A stretch of DNA of 64,000 nucleotides from Nitrosopumilus sp. (GTDB taxonomy: Archaea > Thermoproteota > Nitrososphaeria > Nitrososphaerales > Nitrosopumilaceae): positions 1,856,001 through 1,920,000 of the forward strand of contig OZ243974.1 in assembly GCA_965214775.1 (NCBI GenBank), in the 5' to 3' direction. The notes beneath the pieces were generated by a model. It searched no databases, was not told the DNA's origin, and was given only the letters and a program-made list of their open reading frames with translations. The position numbers and the translations under genes were made by a program. This document shows, in pieces, positions 40,358 through 59,869 of this stretch; positions within the stretch are counted from its first letter, which is position 1; the number at the start of each line of letters is the position of its first letter.

Positions 40358-40496
40358 TAGTTTGTTGCATAACTTCCTTTTTCGTCAAAAACTCCTGATT
40401 TCGATCACAGATAGATCCGAAATCGACTGTGGTTTTTATCTGGATTTATCATCTAGGACGAATTCGAGTAAAAAAATCGAGTTATGCAACAAACTA
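40358..40496. mobile_element. 139-bp MITE sharing ends with the IS5 element at 19481
   Basis: TIR TAGTTTGTTGCATAACT; no TSD. Confidence 0.85.
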
Positions 40497-40559
40497 TCTG
40501 TTTGCACTGCCTTTTATTTTGGCACCATCTGAATTTTGTTTTTGAGACACATATGGTTA
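40497..40559 (-). mobile_element. Left-end fragment of a second copy of the IS110 element
   Basis: ttggcaccatctgaattttgtttttgagacacatatggttaca is identical to 50790-50832. Confidence 0.8.
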
Positions 40560-47464: not shown

Positions 47465-48363
47465 GCTGGCGTGTAATCTTTTGCCTGACCTGCCAAAGAT
47501 CTTGCTTGGGCATCTGCTTTTTGTAAAATCTGTTCTCTGGTCTCATGGGTCATAAATCCTGATTCCACAGACAGCGAACGAGCATATTGTGATGCCTTTG
47601 ATAGAATTTGTGAAATATTTTCAGGTGTAACATATGCTGCTTCAATAGACAGTGAAACTGCTTCCTGGTGAGCCTGTACGAATTCGCCTCTGATTTTATC
47701 CACATCGATGACCATTTCGTCTGATGTATACTTCAAACCGTCTTCTAGTGCAGCAAATAATGAAATCCCTGCTTCTACCGGTTTGATGTCCAACTTGCCT
47801 AAAATCGATGCTAATTTTTCGTTAATCACTTCTCCCTTTTTGACTGGCGTACTGTCTTTTGCGATCCAGATGGTTCCTTGATCAATCTTTGTGGGGATTC
47901 CGGCCTCTTTGAATTCAGTAAGCATTGGCCCTGGCGCAATCCCCGTGTTCTTTTCAGGAACAAGAACATCGGTGCTTGCAATATCTCCGCCTCTTGCATT
48001 CATCATGATCTTGTTTTTTGCAAGCAAGACGTTTAGCTTGAACGGTGACATGTTAGTGAACATAAACATACATTGGCCAGTAAGATCTTCTGACAGTTCC
48101 TTGATTCCGGGAACACCTGATGATTCGGGAGCGTCTAATGATTCAGGAGCAACCAATGATTCAAGAGCCTTCTTTGCAATTTTGTCTTTGATACTTACAA
48201 ATTCAACGTCACCTTTGAGAATCTTTCTTAATGGCAAAATTTGTGTGGAACGGACCTTTTCCATCTTGATGAGGGAAATCACTTTGTATTTTTTTGGAAG
48301 CTCTTGCAGCTGTTGATACATCTGGGCCTTTCTTTTAGGGTATGTGGTTCTATTTTCACGCAA
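47461..48363 (-). CDS. rpl10: 50S ribosomal protein L10 (aP0)
   Basis: ARGGDIA, NTGIAPGP, IPTKIDQGTI. Confidence 0.94.
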   Translation of the reverse strand: MRENRTTYPKRKAQMYQQLQELPKKYKVISLIKMEKVRSTQILPLRKILKGDVEFVSIKDKIAKKALESLVAPESLDAPESSGVPGIKELSEDLTGQCMFMFTNMSPFKLNVLLAKNKIMMNARGGDIASTDVLVPEKNTGIAPGPMLTEFKEAGIPTKIDQGTIWIAKDSTPVKKGEVINEKLASILGKLDIKPVEAGISLFAALEDGLKYTSDEMVIDVDKIRGEFVQAHQEAVSLSIEAAYVTPENISQILSKASQYARSLSVESGFMTHETREQILQKADAQARSLAGQAKDYTPA

Positions 48364-49018
48364 ATTTCTTCTTAACCTCTTGTACCTGTTTTACCGGTCT
48401 GCCCATTGTTGTTTTAATCATGACTCTCTTGATGTTTTTCTCACCGTTTGGCAGTTTCTTTTCAACTGCACTCAGGACTGCATGTGCATTGACTGCCAAA
48501 TCCGCATCTTCCATTGTCTGATCCCCGATTTTGCATGACATTGACAGTGATGCTCTTGTCCTGACCTTGATTGATGATCTGAATCTTTGCAAAAACGATT
48601 CAATGGGGGCGTTAAATGGAACCGGAGTCGGCATTTTTCCTCTTGGTCCTAACAGTTGACCTAGTGTTTTGCCAACTAACGGCATTACCTGCGTGTCTGC
48701 CAAAAAGAAATCATATCTGTTGATGAATTTTCTTGACTCCCTCTTGTTGGCTGCAAATTTTTCTAATTCTTCTGTACCTACAACTGCATCGGCGTTTGCT
48801 TGTTTTGCTTTTTGCCCCATGTCTCCTGTTGCCATGACGCATACTGTTGCAGGCGAACTGGTCTTTGGGAGCTGTACGACCTCGTTTAGGGCGAATCCTT
48901 TCTTGACGTCGATATCTTTGAAGTTCATAATCAGCTCTATTGACTGCTTGAATTTTCTCTCTTTTGCAGCGGATTTGGCCTCTTTTGCCATCTGAGCTAG
49001 CTGAGCCTCCGTAATCAT
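48356..49018 (-). CDS. rpl1: 50S ribosomal protein L1
   Basis: RKFKQSIEL, LGPRGKMPTP, KTTMG. Confidence 0.95.
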   Translation of the reverse strand: MITEAQLAQMAKEAKSAAKERKFKQSIELIMNFKDIDVKKGFALNEVVQLPKTSSPATVCVMATGDMGQKAKQANADAVVGTEELEKFAANKRESRKFINRYDFFLADTQVMPLVGKTLGQLLGPRGKMPTPVPFNAPIESFLQRFRSSIKVRTRASLSMSCKIGDQTMEDADLAVNAHAVLSAVEKKLPNGEKNIKRVMIKTTMGRPVKQVQEVKKKFA

Positions 49019-49077
49019 TACGAACATTTTCGAGAGAGCCTACTTAAAATCGTTTTACTTGTCCCAGTCGACAGCAT

Positions 49078-49168
49078 GCAAGAGTTTACCCCTCAGTCGA
49101 CACTACTGGCCGGAGTCTTCATGATCACGCCTGCCACACCGTATCTCAGGTGAGGGGTAAACTCGTAC
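49078..49168. mobile_element. 91-bp IS66-type MITE
   Basis: GCAAGAGTTTACCCCTC / GAGGGGTAAACTCGTAC; TSD (C/T)GACAGCAT. Confidence 0.88.
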
Positions 49169-49173
49169 TGACA

Positions 49174-49278
49174 GCATACATCAAGTACTATAACGAGTGT
49201 AGGCTGCACTTTGGGCCGGACACAGCCCGCCGCCGGACGCTCACCATGGCATTCTCGGACAAGACGGCCACAGAAGCG
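49174..49278 (+). pseudogene. IS481 3' fragment
   Basis: AYIKYYNECRLHFG...MAFSDKTATEA matches the IS481 C-terminus. Confidence 0.75.
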
Positions 49279-49302
49279 GGGTGTGACTTTAACTCTAGGC
49301 AG

Positions 49303-49437
49303 AGAGGTGATCCGAAATTAAAAGCCGTACGAATTTTTCAAGTAATTTCACAGATAACCTGTATTTTGTTGATGTTTTGAGCTGTCTTGTGCAAATTCAT
49401 TCACAAATAATCAGTCTGCTAATTTCGAATCAACTCT
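49303..49437. mobile_element. 135-bp MITE (IS5/ISL2-like ends)
   Basis: TIR AGAGGTGATCCGAAATTA / TAATTTCGAATCAACTCT; 3-bp TSD CAG; homologous to about 52657-52873. Confidence 0.85.
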
Positions 49438-49466
49438 CAGGGGCTAACCTATTATCTATGTGTCAC

Positions 49467-49474
49467 GTTTATAA
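49467..49474 (-). promoter_or_regulatory. Outward-facing TATA box, predicted to drive the recombinase after circularisation
   Basis: TTATAAAC on the minus strand; in the circle junction it starts 29 nt upstream of the GTG. Confidence 0.55.
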
Positions 49475-49539
49475 GGATTCCACGCGCAACGGTGTTGTGA
49501 GGCATGGCTTTGGCTGGGGGTCTCTTCCTGACAATTCCA

Positions 49540-49670
49540 AAATGAAGGTCGGACACTTATCTATACGAGGATCTCCCTCAGCACCATTCTTCATCCATTT
49601 ATCAGAACCATTCTGCAGTTACAAAACGAGGATCGCCCTCAACTAGGTTAACGCAGATTAAAGTTCTAAC
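49540..49670 (-). ncRNA. Predicted bridge RNA with target-binding and donor-binding loops
   Basis: Two TGAGG-G(C/A)GAT-CCTCG hairpins, each under an internal loop matching the element's target and donor junctions; RNA ends approximate. Confidence 0.75.
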
Positions 49671-49690
49671 TGTAATGGTAATACCAACAT

Positions 49691-50821
49691 TCATTTCACA
49701 CACGCATCTCCTATGCACTGCTTGAAGGTCATCCTCTTCTTTAGCATCCAGTATGATATGCGCAGCATCTTGGATGCGGCAGCCACTGCGGCCTTGGACA
49801 TTCCCCTCTTCTTTGCAACCCTCTTGTAAAAGACAGATATCGGCGAGTCTGACGGCGCATGTCTTACGTGGCTGTGTACTGACTCCACCAGGAGCCACCT
49901 CATCATGGGGCTGCCCCTCTTTGTTATCCTTCCATGGTGGACGGTGTCTGCCGAGTTTCTCACAGACGGCACCATTCCGGCATACGCGCACAGCTTGTGT
50001 GAGTCGGCAAACCTGTCAACGCCGTCTATCTCTGATGCCATGGTCAGCGCGGTGTAGCTGCCAAACCCGGGAATCGTCTGCAGTAAGACTGCATCCGGAC
50101 TGTCGGCAACCGCGCTCTTGATGCGCATGTCAATGCCTACTATCCTGTCGTTTATGGAGTCAATTATGCTTAATTTGTCATTTATCCTAAAGTTGTCCAG
50201 ATCTCTCACCCTTGAGATCCACGGTCTGGAGAACGGATCCCCATTTACCTGTATCCTGTTTTGCAGCAGTATTGCGTGTATCTGGTTCTTTAGTACGGTC
50301 CTTGACTGTATCGTCTTTGCGCGGTGCCTGGTCAGCTGCCTGTTCTGTACAGTCTTGCCGGAGGGAACGTAGCATGCAGATATGTATCCTCCCCTGAGAA
50401 GATCTGCCAGAATCTGCGCGTCGACCTTGTCTGTCTTTTTCTTTGATGTGGCAATAACCTTGGTCTCAAACGGGTTTGAGAGGATCACGTCCCTTTTGAG
50501 ACTGTCTGAAATGAACCTGAACAGCCCGTACCATACTGAAGAGGACTCCATGACGCACTTTGCATTCTTTGGAATCCCTGCAAATATCTTCCTTATCTCG
50601 TCGTCCTTGTTGTCGACTCTTGTGTTACTCAGCATCTTGCCGCCCTTGTCCATCACCGCGACCTGGATGAAATTCTTGCGCACGTCCAGGCCGACATACT
50701 GCTGCTGTTGTTGTTGTATTTGTACAGTCTTTGATTTCACATGTATCCTCTTTTTTGCGGTAATCTGTTTGTTTGCATTGCCATTTATCTTGGCACCATC
50801 TGAATTTTGTTTTTGAGACAC
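49691..50821 (-). CDS. IS110 recombinase/transposase
   Basis: VGLDV, VMES, KTDKVDA (DEDD); TIPGFG, YAGMVPSVRNSA, ITKRGS. Confidence 0.93.
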   Translation of the reverse strand: MSQKQNSDGAKINGNANKQITAKKRIHVKSKTVQIQQQQQQYVGLDVRKNFIQVAVMDKGGKMLSNTRVDNKDDEIRKIFAGIPKNAKCVMESSSVWYGLFRFISDSLKRDVILSNPFETKVIATSKKKTDKVDAQILADLLRGGYISACYVPSGKTVQNRQLTRHRAKTIQSRTVLKNQIHAILLQNRIQVNGDPFSRPWISRVRDLDNFRINDKLSIIDSINDRIVGIDMRIKSAVADSPDAVLLQTIPGFGSYTALTMASEIDGVDRFADSHKLCAYAGMVPSVRNSADTVHHGRITKRGSPMMRWLLVESVHSHVRHAPSDSPISVFYKRVAKKRGMSKAAVAAASKMLRISYWMLKKRMTFKQCIGDACVK

Positions 50822-50960
50822 ATATGGTTACATTGAAAGACCTTGATCATCAAAAAGCGCATTCCTGCGTAGTTCATACCCATATGCGCTCGGACTTTTG
50901 ATCGTCACTATAACTGGCGTCATAGAATCATTAATTTAGTATCTTTATTCACAGAATGCT

Positions 50961-52178
50961 ATGACTGCAAAGGACTACACAGGGTTGGCAGTTGGGCTGA
51001 GGGAGGCCGAGAGGCGTACAATAATGATCCTCGGCGAGGAGAATTTCGACATAGTACTGGGACTCAAGTCCCTGATGGAGGCACGCAATGTGGACGTCTC
51101 GCTAGGCATGTCCTCCCGTCTTGACGATGAACCGTACAACTCCAAACTACTCGACTGGCTGGAAGAGTTCGATGCCGAGGACGGGGAGATGGAGACTGAG
51201 GGGAAATCGCTGGCTCGCATGGGCTTGGTAAGAAGTACAAGATCCGGCGTGCTCGAGCTTACCGAGGATGGAAGAAGGGTGTATGAGGTCATAAAGACAC
51301 AGTCCGAACAAGAGGAGGTCGTGAGGGTCCAGAATCTTGCCGGGTATGTCAAGGAACTGCCAGAGGAGCATATCATGGGCATCGTGTTGCGTTATTATCC
51401 GTTCATGGCCGGCTTTGACACGAGTTCCCCCACATATGGGGATCTGATATCGGCTCGGAGGAGGCTCGCAGGATACCTGTACAGGGAGAACAAACTTGGT
51501 GTCCGGAACGCGGAGCTGATGGCAGGCACGGACGTGGAGAGCCTTCTCAAGGACGCAGGCAGGCGCCGGACCAGGCGCAACAAGTTCAGGGAACACATGA
51601 CGATCGAGGAAAGGGTCGAGGAGCTCAGCGGGGATGCCAGGGGCTTCTTACTGATGTTAAGCGAACACGACCGCAGTCTAGGATCCGCCCCCACACACAC
51701 GCATGAGAGAGGCATCATCAGATCAATATTTCCAGAGCCGTTAGGCAACGACTATGGCGAGATGCTCCCTCCGGATCCCGCATGGGACGAAATCGCCGAG
51801 GATGCAAAAGACCTTGTGGACTCGGGCCTGATAGAGGACAACATGGGTAGTGGGTTCGATCTTACTGATGACGGAAGGAAGGCGTGCGAGGTGATAAGGG
51901 AGAGGTCTGGCGAGGAGGTCCAGCAGGCCGAGAAATTCAAGGAGTTCCTTGACGGCCTGACCGAAGAGGAGTTTGCGGCCCACTCCCTGTTGGGCAGCCC
52001 ATACCGGGAGGCTAACATTCAAAAGTCCGAAGCGTTTACGAACCTGCTGGCAAAACGCGTCGAGCTTGCAGCGTCCATGTACGCAAAGAACAAGATCGAC
52101 GTCCAGAGGGCCGCGCTAATCGCAGACATGGACGTGAATGAGTTTCTCGCGTACATAGAGGAGCATGGAAGTGGGTAA
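50961..52178 (+). CDS. Protein with two tandem winged-helix plus UPF0175-like modules
   Basis: GLV/I...LT(E/D)DGR...YP...R..LA..(L/M)Y..NK...A...A..DV repeated in both halves. Confidence 0.65.
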   Translation: MTAKDYTGLAVGLREAERRTIMILGEENFDIVLGLKSLMEARNVDVSLGMSSRLDDEPYNSKLLDWLEEFDAEDGEMETEGKSLARMGLVRSTRSGVLELTEDGRRVYEVIKTQSEQEEVVRVQNLAGYVKELPEEHIMGIVLRYYPFMAGFDTSSPTYGDLISARRRLAGYLYRENKLGVRNAELMAGTDVESLLKDAGRRRTRRNKFREHMTIEERVEELSGDARGFLLMLSEHDRSLGSAPTHTHERGIIRSIFPEPLGNDYGEMLPPDPAWDEIAEDAKDLVDSGLIEDNMGSGFDLTDDGRKACEVIRERSGEEVQQAEKFKEFLDGLTEEEFAAHSLLGSPYREANIQKSEAFTNLLAKRVELAASMYAKNKIDVQRAALIADMDVNEFLAYIEEHGSG

Positions 52179-59751: not shown

Positions 59752-59869
59752 GTAACAGGTTAGCCACTGCCTAGAGTTGGAGTTGCATCCCTTGCCGGCC
59801 CGGCATGAAAATCACAGCTGCAAGCAGATTCGTGCCTGATTGCTGCCTAGGCAGGGGCTAACCTGTTAC
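59752..59869. mobile_element. 118-bp IS66-type MITE
   Basis: Perfect 14-bp TIR GTAACAGGTTAGCC; no TSD seen. Confidence 0.8.

Follow-up and report, generated by a model that had tools for sequence, protein, structure and literature searches.

A predicted RNA-guided IS1111-type element of the IS110 family and its miniature derivative in a thaumarchaeal genome

Bridge RNAs of the IS1111 group, within the IS110 family of mobile elements, are described as lying in the right end of the element (PMC11208160), and in the IS1111 seekRNAs the top-strand match is described as located 5' of the bottom-strand match (PMC11187229). Such right-end bridge RNAs or seekRNAs and archaeal IS110 recombinases are already published, and the mechanism known from them is left unchanged by what follows. 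Here we analyze a window of 64,000 nucleotides from a Nitrosopumilus genome, which contains a member of this family with the same guide order, in which a 5' arm complementary to the right flank precedes a 3' arm that reads in the sense of left flank and core. We put at roughly 85% the probability that what we see is an IS110-family element of the IS1111 type, still intact and active in the recent past, which would move by an RNA-guided mechanism in its thaumarchaeal host. The direct evidence comes from the anatomy of the element, the structure of its copies, covariation within the RNA, covariation between guides and DNA, and empty sites.

The element and its recombinase

The element and its protein-coding part have the following features:

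49452..50830, minus strand: whole element, 1379 bp, IS110 family; its ends are the identity limits of five full copies
50817..50830, minus strand: left end TA-ACCATATGTGTC, with core TA at 50829-50830 and donor left end ACCAT
50817-50824, minus strand: left subterminal inverted repeat TATGTGTC, part of the left end
49452..49464, minus strand: right end GACACATAGA-TA-A, with core TA at 49453-49454
49457-49464, minus strand: right subterminal inverted repeat GACACATA, part of the right end
49691..50821, minus strand: recombinase gene, coding for 376 aa if read from the first GTG

The sequence-only reading had bounded the element at 49452-50830, precisely where identity among the five full genomic copies stops, and the minus-strand junctions that it quoted all lie in place, exact to the base: CAATG-TAA-CCATATGTGTC on the left (left end 50817-50830) and GACACATAGA-TAA-TAGGTTAG on the right (right end 49452-49464). 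In our own delimitation, the element proper with one TA core occupies 49453-50830, base 49452 being part of the target; contigs from public runs diverge from the window at 49453 and at 50831/50832. The proposed 3-nt core TAA had to be shortened to the dinucleotide TA: in copies of a miniature derivative, M, the left junction reads TAA and the right one TAC, unoccupied M targets have GTAC, and across the family TA alone is common to both junctions. The subterminal inverted repeats (TATGTGTC and GACACATA) are 8 bp long; 6 nt separate the left one from its end of the element, and 5 nt the right one. Of the 23 elements parsed, 21 keep ATGTG in their left ends, those of the other two not having been found. 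The full copies are 98-100% identical, and all their frames are open (377-378 aa).

The recombinase matches both PF01548, the N-terminal RuvC-like DEDD domain (E 2.2e-22, residues 43-187), and PF02371, the C-terminal transposase domain with the conserved Ser (E 2.2e-22, residues 246-323). It scores 229.8 bits against NF033542, “IS110 family RNA-guided transposase” (cut-off 140). Alignment to ISCro4 (9t56) and IS621 (8wt6) places the catalytic residues at D46, E92, D131, D134, and S290: GLD46, ME92, and TD131-KV-D134 line up with ISCro4, and S290, in PSVRNSAD, is aligned to the ISCro4 Ser. The DEDD and C-terminal Ser residues that had been read from the translation are therefore retained. A likelier start than the first GTG would be the GTG at 50738-50740 (V28), just after GAGGA, which would give a protein of 349 aa; compared with the 330-350 aa of IS1111 proteins, the length is thus 376 aa or, from this putative start, 349 aa. 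The IS1111 motif GL-P----S(t)G appears as GMVPSVRNSA, with SA in place of SG/TG/TA, and the assignment, best worded as IS1111-like, is suggested by the layout, that is, the 8-bp subterminal inverted repeats and an RNA predicted downstream of the gene. The archaeal identity of the host also stands: L1 scores above the NF003244 cut-off and below that of the bacterial rplA model, and the nearest related loci are in Nitrosopumilaceae or Thaumarchaeota MAGs.

The predicted bridge RNA and its guide loops

The stop codon is followed by 239 nt of non-coding 3' end (element positions 1141-1379), which hold the only match in the window to our covariance model R1 (121.3 bits, E 5.7e-24), in agreement with the downstream RNA proposed earlier. 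R1 detects 29 loci at E <=3.5e-16, 6 of them outside its training set. The predicted parts of the RNA are as follows:

49535..49673, minus strand: predicted bridge RNA/seekRNA core (139 nt), first the target-binding loop, then the donor-binding loop
49663..49670, minus strand: P1 5' strand GTTAGAAC, partner GTTCTGAT at 49601-49608
49652..49657, minus strand: P2 5' strand TCTGCG, partner CTGCAGA at 49612-49618
49642..49651, minus strand: loop 1 5' arm TTAACCTAGT, holding TAACCTA at 49644-49650
49627..49641, minus strand: P3, inner hairpin of loop 1 (U-GAGG GCGAU CCUC-G), from direct folds
49619..49626, minus strand: loop 1 3' arm TTTTG-TA-A, in the sense of left flank plus core
49592..49596, minus strand: P4' 5' strand GGATG, partner TGTCC at 49551-49555, from RNAalifold
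49581..49591, minus strand: loop 2 5' arm AAGAATGGTGC, with ATGGT at 49583-49587 complementary to ACCAT
49566..49580, minus strand: P5, inner hairpin of loop 2 (U-GAGG GAGAU CCUC-G), 4 pairs
49556..49565, minus strand: loop 2 3' arm TATAGA-TA-AG, in the sense of right end ATAGA plus core TA

In alignment A1 (23 sequences), 97.5% of the cells are paired, as against 33-46% in slid controls, with compensatory change in 10 of 16 pairs; in A2, made of 31 distinct related RNAs, 90.7% of the pair cells are paired versus 32-46% with the partners slid. P1 (7 pairs, 95.9-98.1% of cells paired) and P2 (5 pairs counted, 94.3-96.6%) each show compensatory change in 4 pairs. P4' (GGAUG/UGUCC) is paired in 112/115 cells in one count and in 98.0% in A2, and P5 is 100% paired, with compensatory change in 2 of its 4 pairs and a closing U.G in 31/31 sequences. 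Many such G.U pairs, of which the U.G of P5 is an example, indicate that the structure belongs to RNA of the gene's sense strand. P3 is poorly placed in the model alignment (62.7% paired) and so rests on direct folds, which give a hairpin in most of the 23 sequences, as GAGG/CCUC, GGGG/CCCC, GUGG/CCAC, or GGGU/ACCC. By itself, the 249-nt 3' region does not fold with unusual stability (z = -1.0); the predicted structure is backed by covariation and not by fold energy. For the 3' tail that separates loop 2 from the right end, RNAalifold gave no consensus structure. An Rfam 15 search of 49300-51000 returned only two chance-level matches (E >1, far below gathering scores), with no curated family matching the RNA. 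A C/D-box or K-turn was considered for the linker motifs CUGA and GAUGA and was rejected, both being inside ordinary helices, P1 and P4'.

Most of the RNA anatomy in the sequence-only reading survives this comparison. Its two hairpins (TGAGGGCGATCCTCG at 49627-49641 and TGAGGGAGATCCTCG at 49566-49580), its four guide strings (TAACCTA at 49644-49650, TGTAA at 49619-49623, ATGGT at 49583-49587, and ATAGATAA at 49557-49564), and the letters of its outer stems for loop 1, AGAAC/GTTCT and TCTGCG/TGCAGA, are all present. The stem ATGAAG/CTTCAT given for loop 2 is likewise there in letters, but its positions pair in 8 to 22 of the 23 sequences, and the closing stem conserved in the family is GGAUG/UGUCC instead. 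The check on homologues that had been proposed with it, run here, finds covariation both in the two-loop fold and in the guide/DNA matches.

The guide matches were examined in 23 elements from this genome and from Nitrosopumilaceae MAGs, and all four arms covary with flanks and ends, as expected of the two guide loops that had been proposed. In 100,000 shuffles per arm, which ignored relatedness, a simplification weighing most on the donor arms with their few variants, the observed mean was reached by no shuffle for three arms and by one for the fourth (each p <=2e-5). The mean run of the loop 1 5' arm is 5.00 against its own right flank and 2.79 against others (p about 1e-5), and that of the loop 1 3' arm against the left flank is 3.18 versus 0.39 nt (p about 1e-5). 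For loop 2, the 5' arm gives 4.27 with its own left end and 3.45 with others (p about 1e-5), and the 3' arm 5.00 versus 3.49 with right ends (p about 2e-5). Alignment-free versions of the test gave p = 1.5e-4 and 5e-5.

In the present element, TAACCTA (49644-49650) is the complement of TAGGTTA in the top strand of the right flank; a Watson-Crick run of this length, 7 nt, joins a loop 1 5' arm to a foreign right flank in 1 of 506 non-cognate pairs. At least 4 nt of the loop 1 3' arm are matched in 13/22 elements as against 4/462 non-cognate pairs. The TGTAA match alone is weak, covering 2 nt of left flank, a length reached in 38/462 non-cognate pairs: the left-target arm fits the flank at just G or TG, and the guide for the left end spans just 5 nt. 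Among 29 left ends of the family in this genome, the sole conserved base is G at -1 (28/29). The donor arms vary together with the ends: the loop 2 5' arm reads ACGGT with ACCGT (L063), ATGAT with ATCAT (L069, L087), and ATAGT with ACTAT (L071), and in 22 of the 23 elements ATAGA or ATGGA agrees with the right end of the same element, N2796 breaking the match. The right-flank match is poor, with runs of 2-4 nt, in 8 of the 23 (L062, L063, L065, L066, L073, L075, L080, and L087), and the pairing register relative to the core shifts by 1-2 nt between elements. Among Archaeoglobi relatives, whose R1 matches are weak (E 0.0026 to 0.49), L084 and L086 fit by eye with an AG core, L088 fits partly, and L085 does not.

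These observations suggest that the DEDD/Ser recombinase has an RNA partner, which would be produced from the non-coding 3' end and bound by the protein. In each of the two pseudo-symmetric internal loops of this RNA, a stem would be followed by a 5' arm, a U.G-closed hairpin, and a 3' arm before the stem closes again. Loop 1 would be the target reader, with UAACCUA pairing with the top strand to the right of the crossover (TAGGTTA) and the 3' arm G-UA-A, having the sense of left flank plus core, pairing with the bottom strand. Loop 2 would be the donor reader, with AUGGU pairing with ACCAT and AUAGA-UA having the sense of right end plus core. Strands would then be exchanged at the TA dinucleotide.

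Targets, the miniature derivative, and competing readings

Two further features bear on where the element inserts and how it might be expressed:

49440..49451, minus strand: right target TAGGTTAGCCCC, terminus of a small repeat
49468..49475, minus strand: CTTATAAA, TATA-box-like and outward-facing, about 19 nt before the core

The preferred site, G-TA-A|TAGGTTAGCCCC, is the extreme end of small repeats. The genome has 39 YAGGWTAGCCCC sites, 4 of them occupied, and GTAA precedes 25 of the 35 empty ones. A BLAST search with the first ~150 nt of flank yields 231 matches, the prey being archaeal repeats of ~110-150 bp in tens to hundreds of copies. As the right half alone is strongly specified, any copy of the repeat can be targeted, whatever its neighbor. 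Identification of the prey as an IS type with a TA duplication was dropped, a Pfam scan of the flanking 76-aa and 89-aa frames having given rve_2 at E 0.18, below the cut-off.

M is a 582-bp deletion derivative, present in seven genomic copies, that lost the gene and kept both ends and its own RNA. All five full copies have the guide TAACCTA and the site TA|A-TAGGTTA; all seven M copies have the guide TGATGTA and the site TA|C-AACATCA, with three compensatory changes relative to the full copies. This natural retargeting lends support to the earlier description of the system as programmable. The M target is another repeat end, G-TA-C|AACATCAGG, with 52 empty sites of the form GTAC|AACWTCAGG; both target sets are termini of abundant small repeats. 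The full copies probably mobilize M in trans.

The DNA encoding the RNA has itself been rearranged. The loop 1 3' arm is an internal recombination hot spot (TGTA|A), with six GATAA|CTGCAG junctions and a single truncation, at TGTA|C, and 3' modules occur in tandem or solo (q1210-1379 six times, q1266-1379 once). One explanation, in which guide-encoding DNA acts as a decoy site, would yield such modules. Another, which we consider improbable, is that loop 1 is the sole guide, as in a short target seekRNA, and that loop 2 is an internal pseudo-end acting at the DNA level rather than a donor-binding loop. A parallel is provided by the A'/B' boxes described as bounding the ssr9 module of ISPpu9, which is reported to form modular circles from repeated end boxes (PMC12288879). 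The use of the internal ATAGATAA and TGTAA sites as recombination points, the modules and truncation just mentioned, and donor-arm variants that are few and track clades all agree with it. Against it, the loop 2 5' arm is complementary, not identical, to the left end and covaries with it (ACGGT/ACCGT, ATGAT/ATCAT, ATAGT/ACTAT), P4' and P5 show compensatory changes and 98-100% pairing, and the arms of loop 2 mirror those of loop 1 one by one. The pseudo-end and guide readings are moreover compatible, because DNA that encodes a guide necessarily mimics the guide's target. Less probable still is recognition of ends and target by protein-DNA contacts, with the loop/flank matches as by-products of past DNA exchange between element and target. 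The subterminal inverted repeats could be protein sites, and the left flank is nearly unconstrained; yet four arms follow four DNA segments in 23 elements with many targets, the arms lie in an RNA fold that covaries and has G.U pairs specific to one strand, and the family is reported to be RNA-guided by experiment (PMC11208160, PMC11187229).

As to expression, no promoter was identified for the RNA. An A/T box (YTTATAAR, TTTAAAAA, TTTATTAA, TTTAATAA) at equal distance from the end is seen by eye in 23/23 elements and by regular expression in 19, and we propose CTTATAAA as a candidate archaeal circle-junction promoter: the right-end TATA box would drive the gene and the 3' RNA in the circle only. 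The composite picture of a two-part system, in which M carries its own complete RNA and multiplied recently via the recombinase of the full copies in trans, taken with the decoy DNA and the circle promoter, is tentative, and we give it slightly less than an even chance.

As to movement, contigs of four public runs over 48900-51400 break at the element borders, with no joint spanning the element, no circle junction (contigs drop rare forms), and no empty allele of this insertion; one of them shows an 860-nt internal skip, from 49784 to 50645. No head-to-tail or circle-junction motif occurs within the window, and a genome-wide search for the junction motif found one look-alike with 2 mismatches, at 1713118, with nothing element-like around it. 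The left-flank DNA gave no match in 20 other genomes searched for an orthologous empty site. That the element is a fossil of correct anatomy that ceased to move in this genome would fit these contigs, which also lack a head-to-tail copy, and the several truncated or interrupted copies, but is very unlikely given two full copies that are 99.9-100% identical, open frames in 5/5, six of seven M copies at least 99.5% identical to one another, and many empty targets left. Recent activity is indicated by the near-identity of these M copies and of the five open full copies.

Comparison with known systems

In the literature searched, we found no report of a thaumarchaeal bridge RNA (Supplementary Table 5 of Durrant et al. 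may list archaeal ones) or of a miniature element with a retargeted bridge RNA. The locus offers a clear, fully readable archaeal instance of what we infer to be RNA-guided recombination, and it has a natural control built in, in the form of two guide variants that each have their own set of targets in the same genome. One half-site can carry nearly all of the targeting, so that an element can prey on the ends of other repeats, and guide-bearing miniature elements would represent natural retargeting in trans. The compact recombinase/RNA pair, from an archaeal lineage of the ammonia-oxidizing type, is suited to tests outside bacteria, and archaeal IS110 RNAs may be compared with C/D-box RNAs, the origin of Nop5 from IS110 being under debate (bioRxiv 10.1101/2024.06.21.599552).

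The element shares with ISEc11, ISPa11, and ISKpn4, as they are described (PMC11187229, PMC11208160), a DEDD plus PF02371 recombinase, subterminal inverted repeats, a long non-coding region 3' of the gene, the order of the RNA guides, and a site-specific short core. It differs from them in its archaeal host, in having G-M-V-P-x4-S-A for their GL-P----S(t)G, and in a left-target arm that is down to about 1 nt in the present lineage. Both of its loops are simple internal loops, whereas many IS1111 elements are depicted with multi-loop donor sites (Durrant et al., PMC11208160). With IS621, as reported in PMC11208160 and PMC11208158, it has in common two pseudo-symmetric loops (stem, guide, stem-loop, guide) and a dinucleotide core, and D11, E60, D102, D105, and S241 of IS621 correspond to D46, E92, D131, D134, and S290. 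However, the IS621 RNA is described as upstream of the gene with core CT, as opposed to downstream with core TA and guides in reversed order here, and the two proteins show little similarity (E 5.3e-9, confined to the C-terminal half). ISPpu9 of Pseudomonas putida, another IS110-family element, is in turn reported to have modules that lie between recurring end-like boxes, with a 3' module found singly and in tandem as here, and to be accompanied by MITEPpu9, which lacks autonomy and relies on its recombinase in trans (PMC12288879), as M would do here. The ISPpu9 core is given as AG rather than TA, and the sRNA of MITEPpu9 is described as dispensable for transposition, whereas M has a complete predicted bridge RNA with another target guide (PMC12288879). 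Finally, as in a known precedent, the element enters the terminal repeat of another mobile element at one constant position, the prey in this case being archaeal repeats.

The element, its host and its genomic relatives

The element and its neighborhood comprise the following features:

49452-50830, minus strand: IS110-family (IS1111-type) element of 1379 bp, starting TAACCATATGTGTC and ending GACACATAGATAA
49691-50821, minus strand: recombinase gene, the sole frame filling the element
49468-49475, minus strand: TATA-like box CTTATAAA at the right end of the element
48356-49027, minus strand: ribosomal protein L1 gene, in the same orientation as the TATA-like box and 425 nt downstream of it

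The strings and coordinates that an earlier, sequence-only reading had given for the element were all correct on re-check, and the borders it had drawn are the exact limits of identity among the full genomic copies. An inverted repeat of 8 bp (TATGTGTC/GACACATA) lies subterminally at the two ends, and 239 nt of noncoding DNA lie 3' of the stop codon. The recombinase matches PF01548 (DEDD_Tnp_IS110, residues 43-187) and PF02371 (Transposase_20, residues 246-323), both with an E value of 2.2e-22, and scores 229.8 bits against NF033542, "IS110 family RNA-guided transposase" (cut-off 140). Its closest relatives with a solved structure are the ISCro4 and IS621 recombinases, and alignment with them places GLD46, ME92, TD131-KV-D134, and S290 at the DEDD and Ser positions, the residues of which are named for IS621 in PMC11208158.

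The host genome is a single contig of 2.83 Mb. It is archaeal, as seen from the L1 protein, which at 238.4 bits exceeds the NF003244 cut-off of 203 and stays below that of the bacterial rplA model, and from the closest loci in other genomes, which are from Nitrosopumilaceae or Thaumarchaeota MAGs. Five full copies of the element, 98-100% identical and each with an open reading frame of 377-378 aa, are found alongside one interrupted copy, several fragments, and two shorter forms. The gene-less M form (seven copies of 582 bp) retains element positions 1-290 and 1084-1379 around an internal deletion. It shares 80-86% identity with the full copies, and within the M group six of the seven show identities of 99.5% or higher. 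The related N form has two copies of 610 bp. At one place (loci L003 and L005, C1:2401542-2404570), a pair of full copies in head-to-head orientation flanks a 110-bp miniature element (genome 2403083-2403192), one copy at each end; a duplicated 170-nt 3' module follows one of the pair. About ten solo left-end fragments of the family are also seen, including one of 69 nt and 91% identity in the window (40491-40559, minus strand). Three others (genome 548986, 808415, and 1299349) run into a common sequence of about 35 nt, CGCTATATGAAATC..., and look like a further miniature derivative of the family.

Fold of the proposed 3' RNA and its correspondence with DNA

To evaluate the proposed 3' RNA, we aligned 3' regions from 23 elements (three of the host genome, 20 of MAG loci with 46-90% protein identity), most of which are 137-140 nt long and align well. 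RNAalifold and pair counts yield the layout P1, P2, 5' arm, hairpin P3, 3' arm, P2', P1', linker, P4', 5' arm, hairpin P5, 3' arm, P4'', where loop 1 would bind the target and loop 2 the donor. In the MAFFT alignment, 97.5% of the P1/P2/P5 cells are paired, against 33-46% with slid 3' partners; 10 of 16 pairs in these helices show compensatory changes, and for four of five fold measures the observed value was reached by none of 500 shuffles. A covariance model made from this alignment (R1) matches 29 loci at E <=3.5e-16, six of them outside the training set, and matches once within the window (49535-49673, minus strand). It has no match in the scanned bacterial and Thermoplasmata loci and only weak ones in Archaeoglobi (three loci, E values of 0.0026, 0.063, and 0.49). 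In the model alignment, 90.7% of 788 cells are paired, against 32-46% when slid, with compensatory changes at 16 of 26 pairs. P3 is poorly aligned there (62.7%); direct folds show its hairpin in place in most sequences, with stems changing in step. G.U pairs are frequent (U.G in 31/31 at the foot of P5, G.U in 27/31 in P2); therefore, the fold exists only on the sense strand of the gene. Pairing and compensatory changes support the two-loop fold. The outer stem previously assigned to loop 2, ATGAAG/CTTCAT, is present in this copy, but its positions pair in only 8-22 of the 23 sequences; the conserved closing stem, P4', is instead GGAUG/UGUCC (112 of 115 cells paired).

Several further observations concern this RNA and its relatives. 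At least five other intact IS110-family genes of the same genome (L038-L040, L042, and L044; 30-36% identity) gave no match when scanned with R1 and therefore probably have a different RNA, or one at the other end. The IS110-family Archaeoglobi MAG loci L084-L088 and L100 (about 37% protein identity) seem, when read by eye, to carry the same two-loop 3' RNA but with an AG core, and the R1 matches to them are weak; their right ends, ATGGTAG or ATGGGAG, are copied in loop 2, and L085 is at odds with its own flank. In several relatives (L066, L075, and L087), the two inner hairpins are near-identical within the element and unlike those of other elements (UGGGAACCGAUGCCCG occurs twice in L087), which suggests that the loops evolve in concert. 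Between loop 2 and the TATA-like box, a motif kept in relatives, CYAGCGNNNGCUAURC (49490-49525, minus strand), could fold into a hairpin of 4 bp that shows some covariation (UAGC/GCUA, UAGU/ACUA, CAGU/ACUG); RNAalifold found no consensus structure in this region.

The predicted guide loops were compared with DNA: alignment columns defined the four arms of each element, its parsed ends supplied four DNA segments, and own pairings were set against foreign ones with 100,000 permutations. The four arms track the four segments (p <= about 2e-5), as the proposed guide-target covariation predicts, with the proviso that these p-values, and those tabulated, ignore kinship among the elements, which weakens the two donor-arm results most.

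Guide arms against DNA segments, own versus foreign elements
Loop 1 5' arm, 9-nt right flank (longest Watson-Crick run): own 5.00, foreign 2.79, p about 1e-5
Loop 1 3' arm, left flank (core-anchored): own 3.18 nt, foreign 0.39 nt, p about 1e-5
Loop 2 5' arm, left end (first 5 nt): own 4.27, foreign 3.45, p about 1e-5
Loop 2 3' arm, right end: own 5.00, foreign 3.49, p about 2e-5

Runs of at least 5 for the loop 1 5' arm occur in 15/23 own and 18/506 foreign comparisons, and matches of at least 4 nt for its 3' arm in 13/22 and 4/462. In loop 2, the 5' arm and left end covary (ACGGT/ACCGT, ATGAT/ATCAT, ATAGT/ACTAT), and the 3' arm (ATAGA or ATGGA) agrees with the right end of its element in 22 of 23 cases. 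An alignment-free search of the whole noncoding region gave p values of 1.5e-4 and 5e-5. Against the guide reading, right-flank pairing is poor in 8 of 23 elements (runs of 2-4 nt), its register differs by 1-2 nt among elements, and the right-end match is broken in the N-form copy N2796. On balance, the sequences argue that the mechanism of the element is very probably RNA guided (probability about 0.85).

Target sites, core and retargeting

The left flank of the family is unconstrained except for a G at -1 (28 of 29 left ends), and the right flank varies between the full and M subfamilies. The right junction reads TAA|TAGGTTAGCCCC or a one-base variant in all five full copies and TAC|AACATCAG in all seven M copies; two of the full copies have it behind a duplicated 3' module, and two of the M copies behind a module. 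The genome has 39 YAGGWTAGCCCC sites, four of them occupied, and GTAA precedes 25 of the 35 empty ones; many of the 39 sites form inverted pairs about 110 bp apart and are therefore terminal repeats of a miniature element. AACWTCAGG occurs at 120 sites, five occupied and 52 preceded by GTAC. In the window copy, the first ~150 nt of the right flank (49300-49451) are a repeat with 231 BLAST matches in the genome. The left flank is also a repeat, its first 82 nt (50832-50913) recurring at least 19 more times; elsewhere it reads on as ...CAATC-GTCACTATA, against ...CAATG-TAA at the insertion. Nine kilobases from the insertion, GGGGCTAACCTG followed by TTAC (59854-59865, plus strand) is an empty copy of the target (GTAA|CAGGTTAGCCCC on the minus strand).

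The M junctions (left G-TAA-CC, right GA-TAC-AA) and the empty GTAC targets indicate that the third base stays with its own side. In the 21 relatives for which both ends could be parsed, the left junction invariably reads TA-A and the right one has a variable base 3' of TA, which leaves TA as the only shared sequence. Thus, the core is TA, not TAA as first read, and the next target base is A in the window copy by chance. The sequence-only reading holds in its observation and is supported in its interpretation, with the TA core and P4' stem replacing its TAA core and loop 2 stem.

Both ends and loop 2 are common to full and M copies; the loop 1 5' arm is TAACCTA in the former and TGATGTA in the latter. 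Relative to the full copies, the M guide has G for A at position 2, T for C at 4, and G for C at 5, and the M flank has C for T at +6, A for G at +4, and C for G at +3. All these changes are compensatory, and +1 is unpaired in both forms. A third variant, TGACCTA (N2796), sits at TAGGTC with a one-base shift. A fourth, TAAACTA, in two decayed copies, would fit the GAGTTTACCCC ends that adjoin a right-end remnant (genome 1782129) and a truncated copy (genome 1197640). Since the genome has no intact gene of the M lineage, the likeliest explanation of the recent M burst is that the M copies used the recombinase of the full copies.

Guide DNA as a possible site, an outward box and known systems

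Wherever a guide has the same sense as the half-site it reads, the DNA encoding it necessarily duplicates that half-site. In six cases, three solo 170-nt modules and three tandem ones, ...TAA|CTGCAG follows the right end or starts a solo fragment, with the breakpoint just past the TGTAA of the loop 1 3' arm. One copy is truncated at TGTA|C, where a target-like repeat end adjoins it; a tandem repeat in one copy begins at ATAGATAA inside loop 2; and the relatives L069 and L063 have similar tandem right-end segments. The enzyme may thus sometimes use guide-coding DNA as a site, which would generate the 3' modules.

All 23 elements have an outward-facing A/T box (YTTATAAR, TTTAAAAA, TTTATTAA, or TTTAATAA) whose position relative to the right end is constant, roughly 19 nt ahead of the core; a pattern flagged it in 19, and it was seen by eye in the other four. 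Archaeal TATA boxes lie about 26 nt before the transcription start. Transcription from the box would then start a few bases past the core, a position that in a circle belongs to the left end, with the gene and the 3' RNA downstream of it. The chromosomal box faces the L1 gene, and read-out into that gene is conceivable.

In the part of the literature searched, neither a thaumarchaeal bridge RNA nor a miniature element carrying a retargeted bridge RNA of its own is described. The kind of element is already known: in the IS1111 group, which is marked by subterminal repeats of 7-17 bp, 93.0% of elements have a predicted bridge RNA in the right end (Durrant et al., PMC11208160), IS1111 seekRNAs lie 3' of the gene with the top-strand match first (Siddiquee et al., PMC11187229), and 662 archaeal IS110 recombinases have been counted (Vaysset et al., bioRxiv 10.1101/2024.06.21.599552). 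The present element is thus a further member. Its TATA-like box would correspond, in an archaeon, to the junction promoter of bacteria, and its modules, if decoy derived as proposed, resemble those described for ISPpu9 (PMC12288879).
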